64,000 nucleotides of DNA from an uncultured archaeon. GTDB taxonomy: Archaea > Altiarchaeota > Altiarchaeia > IMC4 > SCGC-AAA252-I15. The notes beneath the pieces are model-generated. The model ran no database searches and was not told the DNA's origin. It worked only from the letters and a program-made list of their open reading frames with translations. Where the stretch lies: positions 1,135 to 65,134 of the forward strand of contig CAZPLO010000003.1 of NCBI GenBank assembly GCA_964587725.1, given 5' to 3'. The position numbers and the translations under genes are program-made. Shown piece by piece: positions 1 through 11,573 of the stretch (position 1 is its first letter; every line of letters begins with the position of its first letter).

Positions 1-1343
1 CCACGTCGTCTGAAACGACGAATGCGCCTGGTATCATCCCCATCCAGCAACTCCACGGTATGACGCCTTCCTCCTCAGGGGTGAACTCTATCGTCTGCAC
101 CCCCGGCGTTATGTCGAACTCCAGCCCCAGCTTCGGAACCTGTATGGCGTTGTTGCAGCCGTTAATCTCCTTCCCGTCTATTATCCACTTCACCGGCACC
201 CCCTTCTTCAGCACGAACCGGTCCGGCTCCCACCCGTAACGGTTCACCTCCATCCTGATTTCCTGGAACCCGTCTTCACCCAACGTTATGGGTTCGGCTT
301 CGCCGTCGACTTCAGCCGGCTGCGCGGAAACACTCAAGGTGTTCAAATCGTATCCCGTGCCAGTCAGCGCGAGGCCGCGGTTGACCATAATCAAACCCAA
401 CACAACAACCAGTACGCCGGAGTAGCGGACTATCTTGTGGGTGAGCCGGGAGCTCACCATCGACGTCAGCACCCCGAACCCTAGCAGCACGGGCAGCGTC
501 CCCAGTCCGAATGCTGCCAGATAGAGGGCGCCGTAGTATGCGCTGCCGGTTGCCGCAGCCAAAATATATATCGCCTGCAGCGGCCCGCATGCTATCATCA
601 GCCCGTTCAACAGTCCGATGGAGGCGGGCCCCAGGTCCTTCGAGAACAGTTTACTTACTACTCCCGGGGTTTTGAGCCGGAATCTCCTGAACCACTTCAG
701 CATGTCCAGCATGTTCAGTCCGAACAGCACCAGGAACAGTCCAGCCAGTACGGCGGCTAGGCCGCGCATCATGGGCGTGAACGTGAAAAATGACCCCAAG
801 AAACCGAATACCGCGCCGAAGAATGCATATGAAAACGTCTTGGAAACGCCGTATGTGAGGTGGCTGCCGTAGTCTACCTTCCCCTCCGACGCCTTTTTGG
901 CGCTGTAGCTGACCACGAACCCCCCGCACATGGCCACGCAGTGGAATCCCGTGAACAATCCTATGGTGAACACCAATGCAAGCGACGCGTTCTGGTCCAA
1001 AGCGGGCATGGTGAAGCCGAGGCTGTCGTGTAGTATGAAGTATCCGCCCGCAAGTATCGTGAGTGCGCCTAGGAGGAGCGATACGTTTTTCACGTCCTCT
1101 ATCCTGAATGTGAGACGGCGGCTGAAACCCTGGCTTCTCATCCGGGGCTCGTAGCCTGCGTCTTCAACCACGTCGAATATTTCATCCAAGTCTGTCTCGT
1201 CCGGGTCGTATTCGACGGCAGCCTCTCCAGAGACGTAGTCTACTGTGAAGTCTTCGACTCCGCCGAGTTTTCCCACCCTCTTCACCAGTATTTTCTCGCA
1301 GCTGGGGCAGGTCATGCCATTGACATTGAATTTACTCTTCATC
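1..1343 (-). CDS. Partial CDS (N-terminus in window, C-terminus beyond window start): heavy-metal-associated (HMA) domain fused to a multi-TM permease (DsbD_2/TauE-like) and a C-terminal cupredoxin-like domain
   Basis: Manual minus-strand translation: MKSKFNVNGMTCPSCEKILVKRVGKLGGVEDFTVDYVSGEAAVEYDPDE (GMTCxxC HMA), then hydrophobic segments with GFHCVAMCGG and MIACGPLQAIYILAAATGS, then a soluble domain ending FTPEEEGVIPWSCWMGMIPGAFVV. Not in the ORF track because the stop lies outside the window. Track ORFs 312..590, 618..872, 651..929 and 930..1154 overlap it in other frames and look spurious. Confidence 0.55.
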
Positions 1344-1562
1344 TGCCTTCACCCTGTACCCCAAGTCCTCGATGGCTTTTTTGACTTCGTTGAAGTCGAC
1401 GCCGCCTTCGTATTTGACTTCCACCACCCCCTTCTCATGGTCTGCAGTCGCTCCTTTAACGTTCCTTATCCCGCCTACTTCGTCCACTACGAGGGTTTCG
1501 CAGGCTGCGCAGTGCATCCCGTCCACCAACAGTTTCTTCTGCTTCATGTGTTCACCTCTCAC
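1332..1562 (-). CDS. copZ: Heavy-metal-associated (HMA) copper chaperone, CopZ-like
   Basis: 76 aa with GMHCAAC (MxCxxC) and a ferredoxin-like HMA pattern. The stop abuts the start of the HMA-permease gene. GTG start in the track; internal ATG (MKQKK) likely. Confidence 0.7.
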   Translation of the reverse strand: MRGEHMKQKKLLVDGMHCAACETLVVDEVGGIRNVKGATADHEKGVVEVKYEGGVDFNEVKKAIEDLGYRVKADEE

Positions 1563-1611
1563 CGTATTAAGTTGAAACAGGTTAAGAGAATATGGGTGAA
1601 ACTAGTTTCAC

Positions 1612-2058
1612 CTAGTGTTCCAGGGTCTCCCGGTCCCCGGCTATTCGTTTATGGGCGGCCTCCAGCTCGTCTGAAACCGGTTTCCCGTGTTTCTTGCGGT
1701 AGTCGTAGACGGCCTCCTTGAGGGCGTCCGCCGCCAGCAGCGAGCAGTGTATCTTCATCGGCGGCAGCCCGCCGAGGGACTCCACCACCTCGTCTTTCCC
1801 GATGTCCAACGCCTCATCCAGTGTCTTCCCCTTAGCCAGTTCGGTGACCTTGCTGCTGGTGGCTATGGCTGCCGCACAGCCGAGGGTCTTGAACTTGATG
1901 TCTTCCACGCGGTCGTCTTTGACCTTTAAATATATCCACATGAGATCTCCGCACCGCATGTTCCCCGCTTCTCCGACCCCGTCCGCATCCTCTATTTCAC
2001 CCACGTTCTTGGGGTTTGTGAAATGCTCTATAACCTCTTCAGAATACATGTCATTCAC
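1612..2058 (-). CDS. iscU: Fe-S cluster assembly scaffold IscU/NifU-like
   Basis: Three conserved Cys (NMRCGD, KTLGCAAA, PPMKIHCSLLA). Overlaps the iscS stop by 4 nt. Confidence 0.8.
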   Translation of the reverse strand: MNDMYSEEVIEHFTNPKNVGEIEDADGVGEAGNMRCGDLMWIYLKVKDDRVEDIKFKTLGCAAAIATSSKVTELAKGKTLDEALDIGKDEVVESLGGLPPMKIHCSLLAADALKEAVYDYRKKHGKPVSDELEAAHKRIAGDRETLEH

Positions 2059-3194
2059 CTCTTCACCGGACTTATGGCCCTGAGTTTGCTGATTTCCTCC
2101 TCCAGCTTCTCGACCGTGTAATCCACTTCCTCGGCCTTATTGTATCTGCTTAATGTCATCCTTACGCTGCCGTGCGCCTCCTCAGGCTCCAGGCCCATGG
2201 CCGTCAACACGTGGCTGGGTTCGAGCGTATGCGACGAGCATGCGCTGCCGGTGGAACACGCTATCCCATGGCCGTCGAGACGGAGTATTACTGCCTCTCC
2301 TTCGACTCCGTGGAATGTTATGTTGGCGTTGTTGCAGAGCCTCCTGCTGGGGTGCCCGTTCAGCCGGGTGTCCTCCACGTTCTCCTGAACGTCTTTTATG
2401 AGCCGGTCCCTGAGTCCAGCTAATTTTTCCACGTCCTCCTCGGCTTCGGCCGCCTTGGCGAACCCCACTATGCCTGCCACATTCTCCGTCCCGGCCCGTT
2501 TGCTTCCTTCGTGGCTTCCGCCGTGCAGTAGGGGCGTGACATTCACCCCCTCCCGTATGTAGAGTGCGCCCACGCCCTTGGGGCCGTGTATTTTGTGAGA
2601 GTTCACCGTGACCAGGTCCAGGTGCTGTTTCTCCACGTCCAAGTCTGTTTTGGTGAAGGACTGGCAGGCGTCGGTGTGAAAAAGCACATCGTTTTCAGAC
2701 GTTATCTTGCCTATGCCGGCGATGTCCTGTATGGTGCCGACCTCGTTGTTGGCGTGGCCCACGGAAACCAGTATCGTGTCGTCCCTAACTGCGTCTCCTA
2801 CGTCGCCGGGGTCCACCAGTCCATACTCGTCCACCCCCACGTACGTGACTTCATAGCCTTGTTTCTCCAGCCATTTGCAGGTGTTGAGTATGGAGCTGTG
2901 TTCCACGGCGGTTGTGATTATGTGTCCGCCTTTGTCTCGCAGCGCGTATGCCACACCCTTCAACGCTAGGTTGTTGGATTCCGTGCCCCCTGATGTGAGG
3001 ATTATGTTCCGGGGTTCAGCCTTCACCCGTCCCGCTACCGTTTTTCTGGCGTCTTCCACAGCCTTCCTAGCCTCCCTGCCCCGCTTGTGCAGGGATGATG
3101 GGTTGCCGTAGCTCACGCTGTAATACGGCTCCATAGCTTCAAGAACCTCTGCAGACGCCCGTGTGGTGGCTGCGTTGTCCAAATACACATCCAT
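2055..3194 (-). CDS. iscS: Cysteine desulfurase (IscS/NifS class I aminotransferase V)
   Basis: 379 aa. LTSGGTESNN, the PLP-lysine region SHKIHGPKG, and active-site CSTGSACSS. Confidence 0.85.
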   Translation of the reverse strand: MDVYLDNAATTRASAEVLEAMEPYYSVSYGNPSSLHKRGREARKAVEDARKTVAGRVKAEPRNIILTSGGTESNNLALKGVAYALRDKGGHIITTAVEHSSILNTCKWLEKQGYEVTYVGVDEYGLVDPGDVGDAVRDDTILVSVGHANNEVGTIQDIAGIGKITSENDVLFHTDACQSFTKTDLDVEKQHLDLVTVNSHKIHGPKGVGALYIREGVNVTPLLHGGSHEGSKRAGTENVAGIVGFAKAAEAEEDVEKLAGLRDRLIKDVQENVEDTRLNGHPSRRLCNNANITFHGVEGEAVILRLDGHGIACSTGSACSSHTLEPSHVLTAMGLEPEEAHGSVRMTLSRYNKAEEVDYTVEKLEEEISKLRAISPVKR

Positions 3195-3199
3195 GGTTA

Positions 3200-3215
3200 G
3201 TTAACAATTGTTAAC
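3200..3215. promoter_or_regulatory. Perfect 16-bp palindrome GTTAACAATTGTTAAC 6 nt upstream of the iscS ATG (candidate operator)
   Basis: Seen directly. Sits between a TTTAATAC TATA-like element and the start codon. The same motif recurs at 6990, 8514, 11158 and 7028. Confidence 0.5.
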
Positions 3216-3249
3216 ACAGATGTATTAAAGTATGTACGTAACCAACCAG

Positions 3250-3717
3250 TTACTTAAGAACCACCATGTTGGTGAGCCCCCGCCGTCTGCGCTCCAGGAA
3301 ACGCATGGACTCCAGCTTGTCCAACGTCCTCGTCACCTTCACCTTAGACAACCCGGTCTTCTCCCCTATCTCGCTCTGGAACAACGCCCCACCAGCGTCC
3401 GTTATGAGTTTGTACACCGTCTCCTCGTCGCCGTCCAAGGCCGCCAGCTTCTCAGACCACTGCTCCGACGACTCAGCCCTGAACGGCACGGGCTTGAATG
3501 CAAGATACACTCCAGTCAGCAGGATGAATCCCGCGCCTCCGAGTCCCACGTAGAACATCGGCGGCACCTTGAAATGAACCATGTCGCACGACTCCCCGCA
3601 ATCGCAGGACGCGGAGCTTACGTCACTCAGCATGTTCAGGAACCACACCATGGTGAAGCCCATCACCAACGCCACAGCCACCATCAAATAACCTACCCCC
3701 TGCAATCCAACGTTCAT
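3250..3717 (-). CDS. Membrane-anchored winged-helix (MarR-like) transcription regulator with Cys cluster CDCGESCD
   Basis: Two N-terminal TM segments with the Cys cluster between them. C-terminal ETVYKLITDAGGALFQSEIGEKTGLSKVKVTRTLDKLESMRFLERRRRG winged-HTH. Overlaps the cysS stop by 4 nt. Confidence 0.45.
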   Translation of the reverse strand: MNVGLQGVGYLMVAVALVMGFTMVWFLNMLSDVSSASCDCGESCDMVHFKVPPMFYVGLGGAGFILLTGVYLAFKPVPFRAESSEQWSEKLAALDGDEETVYKLITDAGGALFQSEIGEKTGLSKVKVTRTLDKLESMRFLERRRRGLTNMVVLK

Positions 3718-5087
3718 CGTATCCTCTCTGCGACCGTGCGGCCGCCCACGTCCTTCAAACGGATGCCTTTCTCCAGCAGTTCGTCGCGTATCCTGTCCGC
3801 TTCAACGTATTTTTTCTCAGCCCGCAGCCGCTTGCGCTCCTGAATCAATTTCTTCAACCCGTCACTTAACTCTTCCCCTGTGAAATCGAACCCCAATACG
3901 CAGGCGACTTCATCGAACACCTGCAGGGCATGCTCCACCGACTCGTCGGACTGCTCGGAGAGCATCCCGTTGACGTCCCGCACGGCCTCGAACAACGCCG
4001 CAACCGCCTTGGGCGTGTTGAAGTCGTCGTCCATCGCCTCGGTGAACGTTTCCTTGAACGAGTACATCTGTTCAGCCGCAGTATTGCTCCCTCCGCCTCC
4101 CGCGGACGACAGCGCAGCCCGGAAGTTCCGCAGCCGCTCCACGGCCTTACCAGCCTCCTCCACGAGGCCGCCGTTATAGTCTATCTGGCTCCTATAGTGC
4201 GTCTGCAATACGAACATACGCAGCGCCTCCGCACTGTACTGTTCCAGGAACTCCCGCACCGGCAGTATGTTGCCGAGGCTCTTGCTCATCTTCTCCCCGG
4301 ACGAATACAGGAATCCGGTGTGGAGCCAGTATTTCACGGCCGGCTTCTCCCCAGTCAAAGCCTCGCTCTGCGCTATCTCGTTCTCGTGATGCGGGAAAAT
4401 CAGGTCGAGGGCGCCGCCGTGTATGTCGAACCGGTCTCCCAAGTATTTGCGTGACATAACAGAGCATTCGATGTGCCAGCCGGGGCGGCCGCGGCCCCAT
4501 GGGCTGTCGAAGCCCAGTTCGCTGTCGCCGGACTTCTTCCACAACGCGAAGTCGAGGGGGCTGCGTTTCCGGCCGTCCTGCTCAACCCTGTGTTCAGTGA
4601 GCTCGTCCGTCTTCTGGTTGGAGAGTTTCCCGTAGTCCGGGAACGTCGACACCTCAAAGTACACGTCCCCGCCGGATTCATACGCATGGCCTTTCTCTAT
4701 CAGAGTCTTAACTGCGTCTATCATCTCTTCGATGTTTTCGCTCACCCGCGGGTATGCGTCCGCCTCCAGCAGGTTGAGCCGCCGCTGGTCCTCCAGCGCT
4801 GCTTCCGCGTACTCCGCCGACAGCTTCAGCGGCTCCACACCCTTTTCGGAAGCGCGCTTGATGATTTTGTCGTCGACGTCGGTGACATTCTGTATGTATC
4901 TGACGTCGTAGCCCCTGTAGCGGAGGTACCTGAAGATGGCGTCGAACGCCAGATACGTGCGGGCGTGGCCGATGTGCATCCTGTCATACACCGTCAGCCC
5001 GCACACGTACGCGCGGACCACACCCTCCTCAACCGGCTTGAACTCCTCCGTCTCCCTTGAAAGGGTGTTGTACACGCGCAACGTCAT
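3714..5087 (-). CDS. cysS: Cysteinyl-tRNA synthetase
   Basis: HIGH motif (HIGHARTY), KMSKS (KMSKSLGN), Zn-binding Cys. The track ORF extends to 5132; the internal ATG at 5087 (MTLRVYNTL) is the likelier start. Confidence 0.9.
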   Translation of the reverse strand: MTLRVYNTLSRETEEFKPVEEGVVRAYVCGLTVYDRMHIGHARTYLAFDAIFRYLRYRGYDVRYIQNVTDVDDKIIKRASEKGVEPLKLSAEYAEAALEDQRRLNLLEADAYPRVSENIEEMIDAVKTLIEKGHAYESGGDVYFEVSTFPDYGKLSNQKTDELTEHRVEQDGRKRSPLDFALWKKSGDSELGFDSPWGRGRPGWHIECSVMSRKYLGDRFDIHGGALDLIFPHHENEIAQSEALTGEKPAVKYWLHTGFLYSSGEKMSKSLGNILPVREFLEQYSAEALRMFVLQTHYRSQIDYNGGLVEEAGKAVERLRNFRAALSSAGGGGSNTAAEQMYSFKETFTEAMDDDFNTPKAVAALFEAVRDVNGMLSEQSDESVEHALQVFDEVACVLGFDFTGEELSDGLKKLIQERKRLRAEKKYVEADRIRDELLEKGIRLKDVGGRTVAERIR

Positions 5088-5095
5088 ATTGAATG

Positions 5096-5117
5096 TTAGC
5101 GAGGGGAGGGATTCGAA
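5096..5117. repeat. 22-nt exact copy of the tRNA-Cys 3' end (acceptor 3' strand plus T-arm) in the cysS upstream region
   Basis: TTAGCGAGGGGAGGGATTCGAA occurs at 5096-5117 and 5210-5231. Between the copies is a hairpin, GAATCCGC-TAC-GCGGATTC at 5171-5190. Confidence 0.7.
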
Positions 5118-5211
5118 ATAAGGGCAGGGCACCTACGGTTCCCCGCCCTTATCAACCCTACCCCTCCCTTGAATCCGCTACGCGGATTCGTGCCTCATCT
5201 TCTGGTTGTTT

Positions 5212-5327
5212 AGCGAGGGGAGGGATTCGAACCCTCGGATAATGGCTTGCCGCATGCTTCAGGGCGTTGGAGCCCGTCCGCTTTTTTTTTTGCAGGCCAC
5301 CCCATTAGGCCGCTCTGGCACCCTCGC
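5212..5327 (-). tRNA. tRNA-Cys (anticodon GCA) with an intron of about 42 nt in the anticodon loop (canonical 37/38); CCA not encoded
   Basis: Minus-strand sense: GCGAGGG-UG-CCAG-AGCGGCCUA-AUGG-G-GUGGC-CUGCAA[A8 GCGGACGGGCUCCAACGCCCUGAAGCAUGCGGCA]A-GCCAU-UAUCC-GAGGG-UUCGAAU-CCCUC-CCCUCGC-U. The 7-bp acceptor pairs perfectly. T-loop is UUCGAAU. Anticodon stem GUGGC/GCCAU. U73 discriminator, typical of tRNA-Cys. Folded by hand only. Confidence 0.55.
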
Positions 5328-5346
5328 AAAAAAATACAAGTAGTTT

Positions 5347-5937
5347 CTATATCACCCATTCGGGTTCCTTGGTGCAGGCGTCGCACGGGTCTTTCAGGCG
5401 CATGTAGCAGCCTTCCATCACCCGGAGCCTGCCCTTCGGGCACACCACGGTGGAGTCCTCGGGTATGTCGTCAACGATGACCGACAACGCGCCGATGCGG
5501 CTGTTTTTCTTCACCGTCACCGGCCCCAGTATCGTTGCCCCCACGCCCACTATCACGTTGTCTTCGAGGGTGGGGTGGCGCTTCTCCCCTTTTTGGTCGC
5601 GCCACCACCCGTGTCCCCCAAGGGTTACGCCGTGGTAGAGCATGACGTTGTCCCCCAGCTTCGCCGTCTCGCCGATGACCACGCCGGTGGCGTGGTCGAT
5701 GAAGAAGTTCCTCCCTATTTCGGCGGCTGGGTGTATTTCCGCGCCGGTGAGGAACCTCCCCAGATACGACAGTGCCCTGGGGATTATCGGAACTCCAAGC
5801 TTATATAATGCGTGGCCCACCCTGTAGACGAGTATCGCCTGCACCCCCGGGTAGAACACCGCCTCCAGGTGGCCGACTCCGCCCTTCAGCGCGGGGTCCT
5901 TCTCATAGGCTGTCTTGAACACGTCGAACATCATCAC
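5347..5937 (-). CDS. cysE: Serine O-acetyltransferase
   Basis: Left-handed beta-helix hexapeptide repeats ([28 protein letters not shown]). Overlaps the cysK stop by 4 nt. Confidence 0.8.
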
Positions 5938-6848
5938 CCCTCATACAACGGCGTCGACAGGTAGCGTTCGCCGGTGTCCGGCAGAATAACCACCACCCGC
6001 TTGCCCTTGCCCAGCCGTTTCGCAACCTGCAATGCAGCCCAGGTGTTCGCGCCGGCTGAAATACCCGCCAACAGCCCCTCCTCCCGCGCAAGCCGTTCGG
6101 AGGTTCTGAAGGCGTCGTCGTTGGACACCAGTATGGTCTCGTCTATGAGCGAGACGTCCAGGATGTCCGGTATGAAGCCCGCGCCGATGCCCTGTATCAT
6201 GTGGGGTCCCGGCTGTCCGCCCGAGATTACGGGCGAGCCCTCCGGCTCCACGGCGATGAACCTCGCATCCGGCAATTCCTCTTTCAGCGCGGATGCGACC
6301 CCCGTTATGGTGCCGCCTGTGCCTACTCCTGCGACGAACGCGTCAAAGGTTTCCACCTCGCGCAGCAGTTCCCGGGCGGTCGTTTCCCGGTGGGCTTTCA
6401 CGTTCGCCTTGTTTTTGAACTGCTGCGGTATGTAGACGTGCGGGTCCTCCGCATCCAGTTCCGCCGCCTTGTCTATCGCACCCTTCATGCCCTTCGCCCC
6501 GTCGGTGAGCACGAGTTCGGCGCCGTAGGCCTTCAGTATCTTCCTCCGCTCCAGGCTCATGCTGTCCGGCATCGTCAGCTTCAGCCGGTAGCCTTTCACG
6601 GCCGCGACCATCGCCAACCCTATGCCGGTGTTCCCTGAAGTAGGTTCGACGATGACGCTGCCTTCGTTCAGCAGCCCCTGCCGCTCCGCCTCCTCTATCA
6701 TGTAGAGTGCTATGCGGTCCTTGACGGAGGAGCCTGGGTTGAAGTACTCCACCTTGGCTATGACCTCCGCGTCTCCTGTTCCTGGCAGCCGGTTAAGTTT
6801 CACGTGCGGCGTGCCCCCGATTCTCCCGATTATGTTGCCGTATATCAT
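5934..6848 (-). CDS. cysK: Cysteine synthase / O-acetylserine sulfhydrylase (PLP-dependent)
   Basis: [14 protein letters not shown] (PLP lysine) and the PTSGNTG loop. 304 aa. Confidence 0.85.
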
Positions 6849-6989
6849 GATTGATCACCTCATTGTTTTTGATTTGGTTTCTGTGGTCCGTGTGTAGGAT
6901 TAGTCTGTTGGGGTCGTCAGACCCTACATTGCATGCAGTTCTTTTCCTTCCGCCTGCCCAGGAGGGCGTCGACGTCAACAACCATCTTT

Positions 6990-7005
6990 CTTAACAATTG
7001 TTAAG
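6990..7005. promoter_or_regulatory. 16-bp palindrome CTTAACAATTGTTAAG, plus a variant TTAACGATTGTTA at 7028-7042, in the divergent region between cysK and the HTH gene
   Basis: Seen directly. Same core as the sites at 3200, 8514 and 11158. Confidence 0.5.
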
Positions 7006-7075
7006 GATATGTAATACTAGTATAAAAACTTAACGATTGTTACTATTTTTAAAGGTTAACGCCGTTAATGTTATC

Positions 7076-7366
7076 ATGAAGCTCCCATGCGAAGAGGCGT
7101 TGTGGTATATGCTGCCGCGTATACGCGCGGACATTGCCAAAGAGCTGGTTAAAATGGGTTTGAGCCAGAAGGAGGCCGCCAAGAAGCTGGGCGTCACCCC
7201 ATCTGCCGTGTCACAGTACCTTCACAAAAAGCGCGGCGGAAAGGCGAAGATGCCGAAGGACTACGGCAAAATGGTTGAGGCGACGGCGGAGAAGCTCCTG
7301 GAGGCGGACGACGAAGCGGTCGTACTCGCGCTGCTGTGCAGGTGCTGCAGCGCAGCCCGGCGTTAG
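7076..7366 (+). CDS. Small HTH DNA-binding protein (sigma-70 region 4/DUF134-like helix-turn-helix, C-terminal CxCC); candidate regulator of the adjacent palindromic sites
   Basis: LSQKEAAKKLGVTPSAVSQYLHKKRG HTH signature. The track ORF starts at 7037; ATG at 7076 (MKLPCEE) is likely. Confidence 0.45.
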   Translation: MKLPCEEALWYMLPRIRADIAKELVKMGLSQKEAAKKLGVTPSAVSQYLHKKRGGKAKMPKDYGKMVEATAEKLLEADDEAVVLALLCRCCSAARR

Positions 7367-7674
7367 GAACGCACCATAACCAGCATCATCTTAAAACGCT
7401 TCACAGCGTTCAGCGCGTGCGGCTTGTCGGCGGGCATGATTATGTATTCTCCGTCGCACACGCGGTGCGGCTCACCGGCTATGATTACCTCTGCTTCGCC
7501 GTCGAACACGTGCACGAGGGCGTCGAACGGCGCGGTGTGCTCGCTCAAACCCTGTCCCTGGTCGAAGGCGAACAGCGTCACCGTGCCCGTGTCTTTTTTC
7601 ACAACCTCCCTGCTGACTATGGAGCCCTCCTGGTAGTCCACCGCAGCCTTCAGTTCATTCACGTCCGTTTTCAC
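7363..7674 (-). CDS. Cupin-domain protein (about 103 aa)
   Basis: C-terminal VTLFAFDQGQGLSEHTAPFDALVHVFDGEAEVIIAGEPHRV..GEYIIMPADKPHA is a cupin beta-barrel signature. The track ORF (7363..7905) has 78 N-terminal codons overlapping the upstream gene. A GTG at 7672-7674 overlaps that gene's stop (GTGA). Confidence 0.45.
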   Translation of the reverse strand: MKTDVNELKAAVDYQEGSIVSREVVKKDTGTVTLFAFDQGQGLSEHTAPFDALVHVFDGEAEVIIAGEPHRVCDGEYIIMPADKPHALNAVKRFKMMLVMVRS

Positions 7675-8504
7675 CCCGTGTTGACCCACTCCTCCTTCAG
7701 TATGCCGCCCTGTATGCCGACCACCACGGATTTCACAGGAATCCTCCTGCCGGCGTCGGATGCCGCGGCCTTGGCTATCTGCAGCAGGCCGCCGCAGCAC
7801 GGCACCTCCATGGTCATAACCGTAAGCGTGTTTATGCCCGCGTCGTCTATCATCGCCTTCAACTTCTCCACGTAAGCCTCCTTGTTGGTGTCGAGTTTCG
7901 GACACGCTATCGCCACCGCCTTCCCCTTAAGATGGTTTGAATGGAAGCTGCTGAGGGCGTATGCTACGCAGTCGGCGGACAATACGACGTCCGCCCCACG
8001 GTAATACGGGGCGGTGGGGGGCACCAGGTGCAGCTGCACGGGCCACTGCCGCAGCTGCGAAATCACGTCCCCTGCTTCACCGCCTTCCCGGGCGAACTCC
8101 ATCATTTTGGTGCCCGGGCACCCGCCGCCGCATGAGCCTCCGCTCTCCCATTTCACCGGCATGTCCAAGCCCTTCTCCCGCAGCACCTCCACGGCCTGTT
8201 TGAAGAAGTCGAATTCCCCGTGTTCCTTCAGGTGGCTCAGGTGCGCCTTGATTGTGTTCGGCCCCGCTCTTATTATGTTCTCCATCACCTTCTTCTCGTC
8301 GTAGGGTTCTGCCTCCCGCTCCTCAATCTCTATCGCGCCCTCCGGGCAGTGTCCTATGCAGGCGCCGAGGCCGTCGCAGAACAGGTCGCTCACCAGCCGC
8401 GCCTTACCGTCTATAATCTGCAATGCGCCTTCGGGGCAGTTGGGGACGCAGAGTCCGCAGCCCGTGCACCTGTCCTCGTCTATGCGTATTATCTCCCTTT
8501 TCAT
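7671..8504 (-). CDS. 4Fe-4S dicluster ferredoxin-domain protein with an additional Cys-rich C-terminal domain
   Basis: CTGCGLCVPNCP and CDGLGACIGHCP (2x CxxCxxCxxxCP), then CGGGCPG and VPCCGG. ATG at 8504 (MKREII) is likely. The palindrome lies 10 nt upstream. Confidence 0.55.
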   Translation of the reverse strand: MKREIIRIDEDRCTGCGLCVPNCPEGALQIIDGKARLVSDLFCDGLGACIGHCPEGAIEIEEREAEPYDEKKVMENIIRAGPNTIKAHLSHLKEHGEFDFFKQAVEVLREKGLDMPVKWESGGSCGGGCPGTKMMEFAREGGEAGDVISQLRQWPVQLHLVPPTAPYYRGADVVLSADCVAYALSSFHSNHLKGKAVAIACPKLDTNKEAYVEKLKAMIDDAGINTLTVMTMEVPCCGGLLQIAKAAASDAGRRIPVKSVVVGIQGGILKEEWVNTG

Positions 8505-8513
8505 CCCCAACAC

Positions 8514-8527
8514 TTAACAATTGTTAA
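8514..8527. promoter_or_regulatory. 14-bp palindrome TTAACAATTGTTAA immediately upstream of the 4Fe-4S protein gene
   Basis: Seen directly. Confidence 0.5.
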
Positions 8528-8578
8528 CTATTATGGTATTGGGTTATAAATACTCCCCCCATCATCGAGGATAGCCTG

Positions 8579-9703
8579 TTACCTTCCCCCGTTGTCTTCC
8601 AGGAACTCCACCAGCGTGTTGCCTAAGGTGTTGTTGTAGACGAGGAAGGCGTCGTGGCCGTACGGCAGGTCCAGCTTCCTATAAACAACGGGAACGCCGG
8701 CTTCGGCGAGGCCTGCGTACACTTCCTCCACCTGCTCCGGCGGATACAGCCGGTCGGAGGTGAAGGACACCAGCAGGAACTTCGCCTTCACGTCTTTGAA
8801 CACGTCCCTCAGCTTCCGCTCGCCTTCGGTGAGGTCGAACTGGTCTATGGCGTGTGTTATGTACAGGTAGCTGTTGGCGTCGAACCGCCGCACGAAACTC
8901 CTGCCCTGGTAGTTGAGGTAGCTCTGCACCTCGAACTCGACCCCGAACTTCCCGTTCTTCCGCTTCTTCCGCTCCCGCCCGAACTTCCGCTCCAATGTCT
9001 CCTGGCTCAGATAGGTTATGTGCGCAACCTTCCGCGCCAAAGCCAGTCCGTTGCCAGGCTGCCTGCCGTATCTTCCGTTGTTCCAGTCCGGGTCGTTCAG
9101 TATGGCCTGGCGGCCGATTTCATGGAACGCTATGCCTAGCGGATACTGTTTGGCGGCTGCGGCCACTGACATGGCGAGGTTCACAGAGTCAGGATAGCGC
9201 ACGGCCCATTCGAGAACCTGCATGCCGCCGAGGCTGCCTCCGACCACGCAGTGCAGTTTATTTATGCCAAAGCGGTCTATCAGCTTCTTCTGAGCGCGGA
9301 CCATGTCCCCCACGGTGATGAGCGGGAAGTCGAGGCCGTACGGTTCCCCCGTCTCAGGGTTTATGGATGAGGGTCCGGTGGATCCCCTGCATCCTCCGAC
9401 GATGTTGGAGCATATGACGAAGTATTTCCGGGTGTCGAATGTCTTGCCGGGGCCGACGGCGATGTCGTACCACCCGTTTTTCCTGCTGTTCCTCCGCCGC
9501 TTCCCTGCTGCGTGGGCGTCTCCGCTCAGCGCGTGGCAGACGAGCACCGCGTTGCTTTTGTCCTTGTTCAGCCGGCCGTAGGTTTCATACGCTATCCTCA
9601 GCGGGGAAATCGTTTCCCCTGAGTCGAGCCGGAGCTCGTCGAACTCCTCATACTTCGTCTTCACGACCCCCACTGAATCCTGCATTTTAACCAATTCAAT
9701 CAC
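8579..9703 (-). CDS. metX: Homoserine O-acetyltransferase (alpha/beta hydrolase)
   Basis: GGSLGGMQVLEWA nucleophile elbow and MetX-like length. An internal ATG at 9685 (MQDSVGV) is possible. Confidence 0.75.
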   Translation of the reverse strand: MIELVKMQDSVGVVKTKYEEFDELRLDSGETISPLRIAYETYGRLNKDKSNAVLVCHALSGDAHAAGKRRRNSRKNGWYDIAVGPGKTFDTRKYFVICSNIVGGCRGSTGPSSINPETGEPYGLDFPLITVGDMVRAQKKLIDRFGINKLHCVVGGSLGGMQVLEWAVRYPDSVNLAMSVAAAAKQYPLGIAFHEIGRQAILNDPDWNNGRYGRQPGNGLALARKVAHITYLSQETLERKFGRERKKRKNGKFGVEFEVQSYLNYQGRSFVRRFDANSYLYITHAIDQFDLTEGERKLRDVFKDVKAKFLLVSFTSDRLYPPEQVEEVYAGLAEAGVPVVYRKLDLPYGHDAFLVYNNTLGNTLVEFLEDNGGR

Positions 9704-9868
9704 CTAAATCCCGGCGCCCCATTCCAGGTGTTCGTCATCCCTCAGCAGTGCCTTACAGTTCCAGCATCTCCCCTGGGTCAGGGCGTAATGTCGGAGTATG
9801 CATGTCCTGCAGTTGCTGCATTCGAAACCGCACGGCAGTTTGCCCGGGTGCTTGATTTCGTCTGTCAT
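9704..9868 (-). CDS. Small zinc-ribbon protein (54 aa) between metY and metX
   Basis: Manual translation: MTDEIKHPGKLPCGFECSNCRTCILRHYALTQGRCWNCKALLRDDEHLEWGAGI (CxxxC..CxxC..CxxC). Absent from the track because it is under 60 aa. Confidence 0.4.
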   Translation of the reverse strand: MTDEIKHPGKLPCGFECSNCRTCILRHYALTQGRCWNCKALLRDDEHLEWGAGI

Positions 9869-11143
9869 CTACAGCCCCTCCAAAGCCTGGTCTATGTCGT
9901 CCAATATGTCGCCGATGTTCTCCAACCCTACGGACAGCCGTATCAGCTCCGGCGTAATCCCCGATGTTTTGAGCTGTTCGTCGGTGAGCTGGCTGTGTGT
10001 GGTGCTCGCCGGGTGTATGGCAAGGCTCTTCGCGTCGCCGACGTTGGCGAGGTGGGAGAACAACTTCAGCGACTCTATGAATCGTCTGCCAGATTTTTTC
10101 CCACCCTTCACGCCGAACACCACCATCCCCCCGTACCCGTCTTTCAGGTACTTTCGGGCGTTGTCGTGTGTTGGGTGGGTGTCCAAGCCGGGGTAGCGAA
10201 CCCACTCCACTGCATCATGCGCTTCCAGGTACTCAGCCACCTCCAACGCGTTCTCCGAATGTTTCTTGATCCTCAGCGGCAGGGTCTCCAGTCCCTGGAG
10301 GAAAATCCATGAGTTGTCCGGCGATATGCAGCCGCCCAGGTTCCTCAACGGCACCAGCCTCATCCTCAGAATGTACGCGAGGTGGTTCAGCCCTCCGAGG
10401 TCGGTCGCGTATCTTATGCCGTGATAGCTGCTGTCAGGTTCCGTGAGCAGCGGATGCTTCCCCCGCGTCCAGTCGAATCTCCCCGAATCCACGACCGCGC
10501 CTCCGATGGCTGTTCCGTGTCCGCCGATCCACTTGGTGAGGGAGTGGCAGACGATGTCTGCCCCGTGTTCTATCGGCCTCAGCAGACAAGGGGTGGTGAA
10601 GGTGCTGTCGACTATGTATGGTATGCCTTGGTCGTGCGCGACCTCCGCTATCGCATTGAAGTCCGGAACACTTAATGTCGGGTTCCCTATGGTTTCACTG
10701 TACACAGCCTTCGTCTCATCCGTTATCCTTTCGGCGAGTTCGTCCGCGCGGGGTTCCGCGAAGCGGACGTTGATGCCGAAGTCCGGTAGTATGTTGTTGA
10801 ACTGCGTGTAGGTTCCGCCGTAGAGGTGGTTGGATGACGCGATCTCGTCGCCTGACTTCGCGAGGTTGACGATGCTGTAGAATATCGCGGTCGTCCCGGA
10901 TGAAACGGCCAGCGCCCCGGCTCCGCCTTCAAGGTCGGCGAGCCGTTTCTCCAATACGTCGGTGGTGGGGTTCATCAGCCGCGTGTATATGTTCCCAAGT
11001 TCCTTCAATCCGAACAGATTCGCGGCGTGTTCCGTGTTTTTGAACACGTAGCTGGTCGTCCTGTGCACTGGAACCCCTCTGGACAGCGTCGTGGGGTCCG
11101 GTTCCTGGCCCGCGTGCAGGGCCTTGGTTTCTGTCTCACTCAT
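9869..11143 (-). CDS. metY: O-acetylhomoserine sulfhydrylase (Cys/Met-metabolism PLP enzyme)
   Basis: 424 aa. SGTTAIF, the PLP-Lys region HSLTKWIGGHG and ETIGNP. Confidence 0.8.
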   Translation of the reverse strand: MSETETKALHAGQEPDPTTLSRGVPVHRTTSYVFKNTEHAANLFGLKELGNIYTRLMNPTTDVLEKRLADLEGGAGALAVSSGTTAIFYSIVNLAKSGDEIASSNHLYGGTYTQFNNILPDFGINVRFAEPRADELAERITDETKAVYSETIGNPTLSVPDFNAIAEVAHDQGIPYIVDSTFTTPCLLRPIEHGADIVCHSLTKWIGGHGTAIGGAVVDSGRFDWTRGKHPLLTEPDSSYHGIRYATDLGGLNHLAYILRMRLVPLRNLGGCISPDNSWIFLQGLETLPLRIKKHSENALEVAEYLEAHDAVEWVRYPGLDTHPTHDNARKYLKDGYGGMVVFGVKGGKKSGRRFIESLKLFSHLANVGDAKSLAIHPASTTHSQLTDEQLKTSGITPELIRLSVGLENIGDILDDIDQALEGL

Positions 11144-11157
11144 CTGAAAACACCATT

Positions 11158-11171
11158 ACTAACAATCGTTA
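11158..11171. promoter_or_regulatory. Variant palindrome TAACAATCGTTAA about 15 nt upstream of the metY ATG
   Basis: Matches 12 of 14 positions of TTAACAATTGTTAA. It is the reverse complement of the 7028 variant. Confidence 0.4.
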
Positions 11172-11225
11172 AGTCTAATATAAATACTTGTCGCATATTT
11201 TCATGCAAATATGCATAGAATATCC

Positions 11226-11573
11226 TTAAGTGAATATCCGGGCCGAGATAACGGGGAGGAGCAGGTTGATTATAGTGTAAGTCAGCACAACGTATGTTGT
11301 TATGGTCACAATCACCGTCATCCGATGCTGTTTCACATCCTCTATGCTGCAGGTGCCGCCGCACTCCTTCCTTATCTTCAGGTAAAGCGACGTGAGCATG
11401 AACAGCGCGCCGGCGGCGATGAAAAACCACTTGTACCTGGGTATCTTGAAAGCGGCCGTGACGCTGCCGAGCCCCAGGACGCTGAACAGCAGGGCAAGTA
11501 TGAGCGGCAGGGTGCAGCAGCTCGACGCTATGATGCTCGCCTTCAACCCCGTGTAAACATCCTTCAAGTCCAT
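11226..11573 (-). CDS. MerT/MerF-like heavy-metal transport membrane protein (3 TM, vicinal Cys pair in TM1)
   Basis: 115 aa. SSCCTLPLILALL in TM1 and a second Cys pair ECGGTC in the loop, as in MerT. Confidence 0.5.
   Translation of the reverse strand: MDLKDVYTGLKASIIASSCCTLPLILALLFSVLGLGSVTAAFKIPRYKWFFIAAGALFMLTSLYLKIRKECGGTCSIEDVKQHRMTVIVTITTYVVLTYTIINLLLPVISARIFT

Follow-up and report, generated by a model that had tools for sequence, protein, structure and literature searches.

In mycobacteria, polycysteine leaderless short open reading frames (sORFs), collectively the 'Cys ribulon', act as cysteine-responsive attenuators (Canestrari et al., 2020, 10.1101/834739), and ribosomes stalled on them open a duplex that hides the downstream ribosome-binding site (10.1101/834739). 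By analogy, these sORFs are the closest counterpart of an arrangement that we describe here from an uncultured archaeon of the Altiarchaeota. The DNA analysed (the window) is a 64,000-nt stretch of contig CAZPLO010000003.1 (assembly GCA_964587725.1, positions 1,135 to 65,134), on whose minus strand a Cys-rich upstream open reading frame (uORF) is followed by cysK, cysE, a tRNA-Cys gene and cysS, which encodes cysteinyl-tRNA synthetase (CysRS). We consider it probable that these genes form a lineage-conserved, self-regulating cysteine and Cys-tRNA module, to which two separately promoted cargo units have been added. The uORF and the mycobacterial sORFs are both short reading frames rich in Cys codons that form the first cistron of cysteine operons at or near the 5′ end of the transcript, a position that is predicted in the archaeal case; the mycobacterial sORF senses charged tRNA-Cys by ribosome pausing, and the same is proposed for the archaeal uORF. 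The mycobacterial device differs in being bacterial and in unmasking a ribosome-binding site, whereas no such duplex was found in the archaeal leaders with RNAfold. Unlike its counterpart, the archaeal uORF ends in a TGT-AGG-NNN-stop hairpin, is accompanied by a transcription-factor operator and precedes genes for tRNA-Cys and CysRS.

The classical leader-peptide attenuators include trpL and hisL, and Cys leader peptides have reportedly been predicted in Actinobacteria. With both groups the archaeal loci share a leader ORF that is enriched in codons for the end product, lies upstream of a biosynthetic operon and carries its regulatory codons near the stop. T-runs lie downstream in 8/13 archaeal loci, and no alternative terminator/antiterminator hairpins were detected in the archaeal leaders. 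Archaeal termination needs only an oligo-T run or a termination factor, and Archaea couple transcription to translation and terminate unlike bacteria. In the Bacillus subtilis gltX-cysE-cysS operon, a T-box leader binds uncharged tRNA. There, as here, cysE directly precedes cysS and expression is tied to tRNA-Cys charging, as we propose for the archaeal module; the latter differs in lacking a T-box (a whole-window Rfam scan at gathering thresholds gave only the tRNA), in having a real tRNA-Cys gene between the two genes and in its upstream Cys-codon uORF. Methanosarcina is a further archaeon in which bacterial-type cysK and cysE are adjacent; these clusters, which Kitabatake and colleagues and Borup and Ferry are said to have described in 2000, are reportedly thought to have been acquired from bacteria, and we know of no embedded tRNA, cysS or uORF described for them.

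Precedents also exist for tRNAs within messages. Mitochondrial tRNA punctuation, plant mitochondrial t-elements and the MALAT1 mascRNA all involve tRNA-like processing signals. In Thermococcus kodakarensis, a tRNA-Lys lies inside the 5′ untranslated region of the TK0306 mRNA (PMC4247193). What our locus has in common with these is a tRNA, or a mimic of its acceptor and T arms, within an mRNA precursor whose ends would be set by RNase P and tRNase Z cuts; it differs in that the tRNA is cognate to the synthetase encoded downstream, in that the mimic (a minihelix, described below) bears a 37-nt hairpin in its T-loop, and in being known from sequence alone. Clustering of tRNA-Cys genes with SepRS/SepCysS and sulfur genes has been reported, SepRS is said to be frequent in Altiarchaeales, and there are archaeal CysRSs with bacterial affinities (Mukai et al., 2017, PMC5424206). 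As in SepRS/SepCysS operons, tRNA-Cys is here clustered with its loading enzyme and with sulfur-metabolism genes; unlike them, the locus has the direct-pathway CysRS together with cysK and cysE, and its embedded tRNAs carry A37. In the literature searched, with incomplete coverage, we found no cysE-tRNA-Cys-cysS unit, no report of the operator described below and no archaeal amino-acid leader peptide.

Genes were checked by a six-frame ORF listing combined with Pfam and NCBIfam profiles over the 64-kb window. All genes named in a preliminary description of the region, from cysK to an HMA-domain protein, were recovered on the minus strand, and the two 4-nt overlaps it had noted are present, between cysK and cysE at 5934-5937 and between cysS and a winged-helix (wHTH) gene at 3714-3717. 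cysK (5934-6848), encoding O-acetylserine sulfhydrylase, scored 439 bits against TIGR01139 (cut-off 351) and matched Pfam PALP; cysE (5347-5937), encoding serine O-acetyltransferase, scored 189.6 bits against TIGR01172 and 185.5 against NF041874 (cut-off 150); cysS (3714-5087) matched Pfam tRNA-synt_1e at 9e-124; and the wHTH gene (3250-3717) encodes a membrane-anchored protein of the DUF7343/MarR-like type (Pfam). Aligning six homologues fixed the cysS start at the ATG at 5087 (MTLRVYNT..., 457 aa). Public gene calls place it at a GTG at 5132 (472 aa), adding 15 spurious codons that run through the minihelix (5088-5132).

Relatives of this CysRS at 54-65% identity all belong to Candidatus Altiarchaeota/Altiarchaeales metagenome-assembled genomes (MAGs), and the next tier, at about 50%, mixes bacteria, Thermococcus and other archaea. 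cysK, cysE and cysS are adjacent in 6/6 first-tier relatives. A tRNA-Cys follows cysE in 8 of the 12 readable loci (the window, L085, L088, L089, L090, L091, L096 and L127), a decayed copy does so in a ninth (L173), and none was found after cysE in L092, L094 or L174; the arrangement is thus not peculiar to one genome. Rfam scores were 57-63 bits in L085, L088, L089 and L091, and 40.2 bits in L090. The comparison set comprised 80 CysRS loci of other lineages among the matches listed, all at 50% identity or less. In 28 of these 80, cysE immediately precedes cysS, the usual bacterial arrangement, and none of the 28 pairs has a tRNA between the genes. Only one control locus has a tRNA-Cys beside cysS: in L011, a Candidatus Micrarchaeota MAG, an S-adenosylhomocysteine hydrolase gene, 32 nt, a tRNA-Cys (GCA, G37), 11 nt and cysS follow one another, without cysE (7918-8003), and this is an independent tight juxtaposition of the two genes in another DPANN-type lineage. 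L174, whose CysRS is 52% identical, has an operator-like site and neither uORF nor embedded tRNA, and so marks the boundary of the clade. The conserved object is cysK-cysE-tRNA-Cys-cysS, with or without the wHTH gene (found after or near cysS in L085, L090, L091 and L173), and not the whole 6.8 kb.

What follows cysS is far from constant. An iscS-iscU pair stands there only in the window and L090 and is missing there from the other six relatives that cover the region; elsewhere cysS is followed by a TtuA/NcsA-like tRNA thiolase gene (L085, L090), by ThiF-SepCysS-ThiS-ThiI (L089) or by unrelated genes. The L089 cluster (8493-11392) consists of a ThiF/UbaA-like E1 gene, a 57-aa ORF and genes for SepCysS (TIGR02539, 390 bits against a cut-off of 365), ThiS and ThiI, so that genes of the direct (CysRS) and indirect (SepCysS) routes lie beside one tRNA gene. 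An A/G-rich inverted repeat, CTTTCTTTCTTT...AAAGAAAGAAAACGTTGACGAAAAGAAAGAAA, follows the tRNA in L091 (about 6895-6990), L096 (reverse strand), L127 and L173 (2560-2640) and does not occur in the window; it is possibly either an intergenic repeat specific to the lineage or an element resembling a terminator.

The uORF occupies 6917-6985 on the minus strand, has 22 codons and would encode MVVDVDALLGRRKEKNCMQCRV. Its ATG lies 5 nt after O1, the palindromic operator described below, and its stop 68 nt before the cysK ATG, within a leader of 145 nt between O1 and cysK; the cysK Shine-Dalgarno sequence GAGGTGAT (6854-6861, minus strand) is invariant in the leader alignment. A uORF of 18-25 codons is present in 13 of 14 cysK loci and ends 61-98 nt before cysK. 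The first ATG after the operator opens it in 10/10 operator-bearing loci and stands 2-6 nt after the operator in nine of these; the uORF also occurs in L092 and L094, which have no operator, and in L173. The peptides predicted for the relatives are MVNRLTAPTRPSGPTCPACQCRA (L085), MNGFHPRSGDCRCCCCRG (L088), MNPQKVHQGRGTPTGFCCCCCQCRL (L089), MDLGITAFTARSCGCCFCQCRL (L090), MVGLLYLLRGAGTPLTCPCPCQCRV (L091), MFARKTEETRSSDSFSCFCQCRL (L092), MAISAYVSFVRTSAPSCSLECRL (L094), MDRHEYLHSGRPCGCCCCRECRL (L096), MALQEYKPEEQNPRTRKRSSLYCRP (L104), MDLRTPPTEYCKLNCCFLYCRL (L112), MHRKNTKKTERSCTCSCCQCQCC (L127) and MKSWINTLNKKSNKCSQFCQCRA (L173).

Cys codons are strongly enriched in these frames. In 12 uORFs, TGY triplets are distributed 48/7/3 over the three frames, and 48 of 274 codons (17.5%) specify Cys; shuffled sequences gave a mean of 8.1 in-frame TGY triplets and a maximum of 17, none of 2000 shuffles reaching 48, and all 12 frames were open together in 0/2000. 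The Cys codons cluster 3-9 codons before the stop and number 1 to 7 per leader. The mycobacterial polycysteine sORFs are marked by two or more Cys codons in a row; such runs occur in L088, L089, L090, L096, L112 and L127, and none is present in the uORFs of the window, L085, L091, L092, L094, L104 or L173. The N-terminal two-thirds is conserved in neither sequence nor length, and Cys codons upstream of the final TGT vary in number and in the choice of TGC or TGT. By contrast with this variable body, TGT-AGG-NNN-stop ends 11 of 12 uORFs, and the TGTAGG motif lies in the uORF frame in 10/10 operator-bearing loci (chance about 2e-5). With 35-40 nt between the TATA box and the uORF ATG, the predicted leader ahead of the uORF is about 10-13 nt long and lacks a Shine-Dalgarno sequence; the ATGs of iscS and of a Fer4-domain gene stand in the same place relative to TATA box and operator, which supports the uORF ATG as a true start codon, on an mRNA with a short leader.

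TGT-AGG hardly varies even in its nucleotides, which implies that the device includes an element acting as RNA. In the window, the uORF stop codon sits in the loop of a hairpin, GGGTC-TGAC-GACCC (6911-6924, minus strand), whose arms covary among the loci (GTAGGG/CCCTAC, AGGCTC/GAGCCT, CGGGT/ACCCG, TGTAGGC/GCCTACA); RNAalifold on the leaders, in which the variable uORF body aligns poorly, returned only a 3-bp core of it. A CGGAC motif (6886-6890, minus strand) follows the stop at 14-27 nt in 10 of 12 leaders. Besides the window, the leaders of L089, L090, L091, L092, L094, L096, L104, L112 and L127 carry it, in the form CGGA(C/T), within an A/C-rich, G-poor stretch, and inspection by eye revealed no consistent complementarity of the motif to the tRNA 3′ end (UCCA), the 16S 3′ end or the Shine-Dalgarno sequence. 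The T-runs mentioned above (T5-T8, between uORF and cysK) are absent from the window, L085, L088, L092 and L104.

The tRNA-Cys (GCA, A37, U73) occupies 5212-5327 on the minus strand, with exon 1 at 5290-5327, a 42-nt intron at 5248-5289 and exon 2 at 5212-5247. It matched Rfam RF00005 over exactly this interval with 45.7 bits (gathering score 29) and a 44-nt insertion in the anticodon loop; together with its bulge-helix-bulge (BHB) geometry and the alignment of orthologues, this establishes it as a genuine tRNA gene between cysE and cysS. The intron, which the preliminary description did not mention, explains why ARAGORN in default mode reported no tRNA across the 64-kb window. In intron mode ARAGORN gave identical coordinates and set the intron two bases too early, calling Gly-GCC and putting the 3′ cut at a helix/bulge junction; BHB-defined splicing at 37/38 instead gives the loop CUGCAAA with anticodon GCA. 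The spliced sequence matches intron-less tRNA-Cys orthologues column for column, CUGCAA is invariant, and the discriminator U73 (T74 of the alignment) is invariant in all eight aligned tRNAs; for these reasons we assign the tRNA as Cys-GCA with A37. U73 is the major identity element for CysRS. The predicted fold has the anticodon stem, a 3-nt CAA bulge on the 3′ strand and a 4-bp helix of C32-C35 with the intron, leaving A38; on the 5′ side of the splice site it opens into a loop rich in A, and the outer helix is weak. The strict motif has two 3-nt bulges 4 bp apart with helices on either side; in this model the splice site is a relaxed BHB or a bulge-helix-loop (BHL)-like form. Introns occupy the canonical 37/38 position in the window (42 nt), L090 (about 20 nt) and L096 (101 nt). 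All eight embedded tRNAs-Cys have A37, and the non-embedded tRNA-Cys of L174 and the Micrarchaeota tRNA of L011 have G37. G37 has been described as the archaeal type of tRNA-Cys and A37 as the bacterial type (Mukai et al., 2017, PMC5424206), and the pattern is compatible with a tRNA dedicated to a CysRS route with bacterial affinities.

TATA-like boxes and oligo-T runs were listed directly from the sequence. Immediately upstream of the tRNA, a T7 run (5328-5334, minus strand) abuts its 5′ end; it is the sole intergenic run of at least five T on the coding strand from 7100 to 1, apart from a run in a TATA box, is a candidate oligo-T terminator or attenuator of the cysK-cysE transcript, and has no equivalent in the relatives' cysE-tRNA spacers.

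The distance between tRNA and cysS is informative in three relatives. L085 has 7 nt between the cysE stop and the tRNA and 5 nt between the tRNA and the cysS ATG, L088 has 8 and 9 nt, and L090 has 11 nt between the end of the tRNA and the ATG. No Shine-Dalgarno sequence precedes cysS in any locus examined, as against the invariant GAGGTGAT before cysK. Spacers of 5-11 nt leave no room for a separate cysS promoter, which makes co-transcription of tRNA and mRNA followed by processing the simplest reading. The suggestion in the preliminary description that tRNA and mRNA are co-transcribed is thus favoured by the spacing in L085, L088 and L090, though not for the whole 6.8-kb chain.

In the window, the 'short spacers' that had been described between the genes do not extend to the tRNA-cysS gap, which is 124 nt long and strongly structured. 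Next to the tRNA is a predicted hairpin, GAAUCCGC-GUA-GCGGAUUC (5171-5189, minus strand), followed by a tRNA-derived minihelix (5096-5169, minus strand) with acceptor-like and T-arm-like stems and the 37-nt hairpin in the T-loop. A perfect 22-nt direct repeat links it to the tRNA, 5096-5117 being identical to the tRNA 3′ end plus 2 nt (5210-5231). The minihelix ends 10 nt before the cysS ATG, like the true tRNA in the three relatives, and folds at -47.7 kcal/mol (z-score -5.4). Its acceptor-like stem, GGGAGGG/CCCUC-C, is stacked on the T-arm-like stem (pairs G48-C117 to G54-C111, G55-C110, and A57-U109 to G60-C106), and U118 takes the discriminator position; a t-element is defined by an acceptor-like and a T-arm-like helix in coaxial arrangement and by an unpaired discriminator at the 3′ end. 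Rfam did not score the minihelix as a tRNA. We read it as a relic of the ancestral tRNA at the ancestral position, possibly retained as a processing signal or as a mimic that binds CysRS. A second tRNA, a split tRNA or a T-loop intron was rejected, given the missing Rfam match and a 37-nt insert without a BHB; so was an att site of an integrated element, the repeat copies being 94 nt apart with no integrase nearby. An independent assembly of the same organism (L001/L084, Logan contig SRR7048219_22915) breaks in the spacer about 33 nt upstream of 5132, and the spacer with its repeat is therefore known from one assembly.

Fragments of tRNA recur beside the tRNA genes of relatives. L089 and L091 have hairpins that begin with the first 9 and 7 nt of their own tRNAs. 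L090 (6808-6894) repeats the start of its tRNA (18 nt, of which 2 are leader) 86 nt upstream, beside a long GAAAAC-rich inverted repeat; the T-loop of this tRNA, UGCGAAU, is unusual and has G at position 55. In L173 (2315-2460), the interval from cysE to the decayed, intron-bearing tRNA-Cys-like sequence holds three hairpin repeats of 47-54 nt in tandem, TCGCTGAGGTGGA...CCTCAGTTGCATAC. They share both acceptor strands with that sequence, so that tRNA ends and flanking hairpins appear to evolve together.

Upstream of the uORF, the palindrome TTAACAATTGTTAA identifies a candidate sulfur operator, with five sites in the window against 0.03 expected, all within 3.2-11.2 kb. O1 (6991-7004), a perfect copy, overlaps the predicted transcription start of the cysK unit, and the cysK TATA box, TTTTTATA (7021-7028, minus strand), lies 16 nt upstream of it, a layout repeated in the relatives. 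O2, TTAACGATTGTTAC (7030-7043), stands on the regulator-gene side of this divergent promoter region. The iscS promoter (3201-3229, minus strand) combines a TATA-like TTTAATAC (3222-3229) with a perfect TTAACAATTGTTAA (3201-3214) 6 nt before the ATG. Further copies lie at the promoter of the Fer4-domain gene (8514-8527) and, with two mismatches, between the metY TATA box and ATG (11159-11172). An O1-type operator is found at the cysK promoters of L085, L088, L089, L090, L091, L096, L104, L112, L127 and L173, and in the relatives the operator follows just after the TATA box at cysK, metY, iscS, thi4 and regulator promoters; the operator-iscS arrangement is repeated in L090 and the operator-metY arrangement in L085, L088 and L091. 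L085 has additional sites before a Thi4-family (thiazole-synthase-like) gene (6752) and before a cluster of a small ORF, a MerT-like gene and a Fer4 gene (1416), implying a regulon wider than cysteine, methionine and Fe-S genes.

The candidate repressor is a 96-aa HTH_3 protein encoded divergently at 7076-7366 on the plus strand (Pfam HTH_3, 32.6 bits against a cut-off of 23), in which C5, H50, C88 and C91 are invariant in the homologue alignment. A metagenome scan was seeded with this protein alone and yielded about 20 informative loci. In 16 independent metagenome loci, the gene for a homologue of at least 55% identity is preceded by the palindrome at a distance of 20-150 nt, and none of the more distant homologues has it there; most of the scan consisted of homologues of about 50% identity in other contexts, with neither cys genes nor the palindrome. 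A search of solved structures returned only generic Cro/HigA/KorA-like helix-turn-helix (HTH) matches. To judge from sequence, the protein is likely to be an autoregulated binder of TTAACAATTGTTAA, and the cysK unit, iscS-iscU, metY-metX, the ferredoxin-domain gene and the regulator gene would together form a sulfur regulon.

Two further units lie beyond the wHTH gene. The iscS gene (2055-3194, minus strand; cysteine desulfurase of NifS/IscS type, TIGR03402, 500 bits) overlaps iscU (1612-2058, minus strand; Fe-S scaffold of NifU/IscU type, TIGR03419, 189.9 bits against a cut-off of 187.9) by 4 nt at 2055-2058, and has a TATA box and operator of its own within the 55 nt that separate it from the wHTH gene. 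A different palindrome, GTGAAACTAGTTTCAC (1596-1611), a candidate operator of the metal module, stands ahead of a copZ-like HMA metallochaperone gene (1332-1547, minus strand; Pfam HMA; a 71-aa gene is called there in L084). The next gene (1-1342, minus strand, continuing beyond the window start) had been called an HMA permease; its HMA part is real, but domain matches show an HMA-DsbD_2-cupredoxin fusion membrane protein in place of a permease, and DsbA-like, FtrD-like and CopA genes lie further downstream, outside the window. The metal palindrome, of the form (G/C/T)TGAAACTAGTTTCA with an extra TGTTTCA half-site about 20 nt downstream, is kept before copZ in L090 (11456) and L091 (12994) and before a DsbA-like gene in L085 (12924); in L091 copZ follows a cupin gene, not iscU, and the palindrome is nevertheless present. 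It occurs in 4/4 loci with a DUF7343 wHTH gene versus 0/3 without, and in L085 it starts 2 nt after that gene; the DUF7343 protein may be its regulator, in a small sample that is confounded by neighbourhood.

Other operator-bearing genes lie on the far side of the regulator. The Fer4/AF_0155-domain gene (7671-8513) encodes a 280-aa protein with two N-terminal 4Fe-4S motifs and is accompanied by a small cupin gene (region 7363-8527); this pair recurs near cys and met genes in L085, L090, L091, L092 and several metagenome loci. Profile matches identify metY (9869-11143), then metX (8579-9703).

We propose that the core unit, ordered TATA box, operator, uORF, cysK, cysE, tRNA-Cys, minihelix, cysS and DUF7343 wHTH gene, would be controlled in three layers. 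First, the divergently encoded, Cys-containing HTH protein would bind TTAACAATTGTTAA, and such binding would repress, since the palindrome covers the predicted transcription start. Second, ribosomes would decode the uORF Cys codons just before a stop that is buried in the conserved hairpin; when Cys-tRNA-Cys is scarce, they would stall in the uORF and downstream expression would change in a direction that we leave unspecified. As the downstream genes make cysteine, the tRNA and the synthetase, the control loop would be closed, and the arrangement is coherent in that the controlled transcript encodes all three inputs to the quantity sensed. The switch might be a change in termination, at oligo-T or dependent on a factor, within the A/C-rich spacer that is not translated, a shielding of the 5′ part of the mRNA by the stalled ribosome, or an event at the stop-codon hairpin and CGGAC motif. 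Third, the tRNA would be co-transcribed, freed by RNase P and tRNase Z and spliced at the relaxed BHB, and a cut after the tRNA, or here after the minihelix, would leave a cysS mRNA with a 5-11-nt leader and no Shine-Dalgarno sequence. iscS-iscU would be a second unit of the sulfur regulon and the copZ metal module a third unit under a different operator. More tentatively than the conserved module itself, we suggest that the uORF may be a Cys-tRNA-Cys sensor over a transcript for cysteine synthesis, a dedicated 'bacterial-type' A37 tRNA-Cys and CysRS, and that the tRNA or minihelix may punctuate this transcript and possibly titrate CysRS. The result would be a self-contained, self-regulating second cysteine-coding system, 'second' because Altiarchaeales commonly also have SepRS/SepCysS. 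The SepRS/SepCysS system of methanogens prefers G37 tRNA-Cys.

A number of observations weigh against this proposal. The window uORF has only two, non-adjacent Cys codons (C-M-Q-C) and no T-run, that of L104 has a single Cys codon, and the invariance of TGTAGG at the nucleotide level could reflect selection on an RNA motif in place of decoding. Sequestration of the ribosome-binding site as in mycobacteria was rejected: with a ribosome footprint modelled by RNAfold at the first Cys codon, the last Cys codon or the stop codon, the accessibility of the cysK Shine-Dalgarno sequence did not change consistently in 12 leaders, and RNAalifold found no conserved terminator/antiterminator pair in the leader alignment. 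The uORF and the tRNA can be separated, for L092 and L094 keep the former and lack the latter. In L090, the tRNA is preceded at about 29 nt by a TATA-like ATTTAAAA, and this box and the T7 run of the window indicate that tRNA-cysS may be transcribed apart from cysK-cysE in some genomes. The link between regulator and operator, finally, is one of co-occurrence.

Some of these points would be accommodated if the short ORF were not a sensor. It might instead encode a Cys-rich micropeptide, for metal or sulfur binding or as the precursor of a modified peptide, or the TGTAGG hairpin might be a protein-bound RNA element with the frame incidental. In favour of such a reading are the conserved C-terminal C-x-C-Q-C-R-x motif, the near-invariant TGT-AGG without synonymous variation, the conserved CGGAC after it, the lack of a structural switch in the RNAfold modelling and the low numbers of Cys codons in the window (two) and L104 (one). 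We nevertheless regard this explanation as rather doubtful. An unconserved N-terminal two-thirds is what is expected of leader peptides, the upstream Cys codons differ freely between loci in number and in the use of TGC or TGT, the reading frame is conserved and stays open far more than chance would allow, the ORF is always in the leader of a cysteine-synthesis gene, and the mycobacterial analogue has been proven by experiment.

A second alternative concerns the tRNA. As tRNA genes are hot-spots of recombination, its position could be a historical accident without regulatory meaning, with the duplications as debris of integration, excision or gene conversion and with tRNA and cysS each served by a promoter of its own. 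A perfect 22-nt repeat of a tRNA 3′ end is of the type that flanks integrated elements, but only 94 nt separate the copies and no integrase or element is present. Partial duplications of tRNA 5′ ends in L089, L090 and L091, the tandem repeats of L173, spacers ranging from 5 to about 290 nt, the loss of the tRNA in L092 and its decay in L173 would all be at home in such a history; yet the arrangement has been kept while CysRS diverged to as little as 54% identity, the window duplicate lies at the ancestral distance (10 nt) with a z-score of -5.4, and none of the 28 control cysE-cysS pairs (80 listed loci) has gained a tRNA. Separate promoters would agree with the TATA-like box before the L090 tRNA, but 5-11 nt to a cysS ATG without Shine-Dalgarno sequence leave no promoter room in three genomes. 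On balance we think an accident unlikely.

The reading of the preliminary description, one polycistronic 'supply chain' from cysK to the HMA membrane protein in the order of metabolic flow, is quite improbable: although all genes are co-oriented, three pairs overlap by 4 nt, the T7 run before the tRNA is the only intergenic oligo-T so that read-through is possible, and L090 shows the same full order, iscS has its own TATA box and an operator 6 nt before its ATG, the different palindrome of copZ travels with metal genes in L091 and L085 without iscU, iscS-iscU follows cysS in only two genomes, and the T7 run is itself a candidate terminator between cysE and tRNA. What had been seen as metabolic order comes down to the conserved four-part core with variable sulfur and metal cargo behind it. 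The conserved self-regulating module with separately promoted cargo is therefore the reading that we carry forward.

For annotation, the locus teaches that tRNA finders at default settings overlook or mis-assign this tRNA-Cys gene and that automated gene calling lengthens cysS into the minihelix. With its embedded tRNA, it is also well suited to asking whether mRNA ends in archaea are set by tRNA processing and whether a synthetase gene can be tuned through its own tRNA or a tRNA mimic. Ribosome-mediated leader-peptide attenuation is textbook bacterial regulation, and the conserved Cys-codon uORF is a concrete archaeal candidate for it, of which the natural variants, with 1-7 Cys codons and with or without T-runs, could serve as ready-made mutants. 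The operator and its candidate regulator, in turn, would represent a sulfur regulon not described before, from one of the major uncultured lineages of the subsurface.

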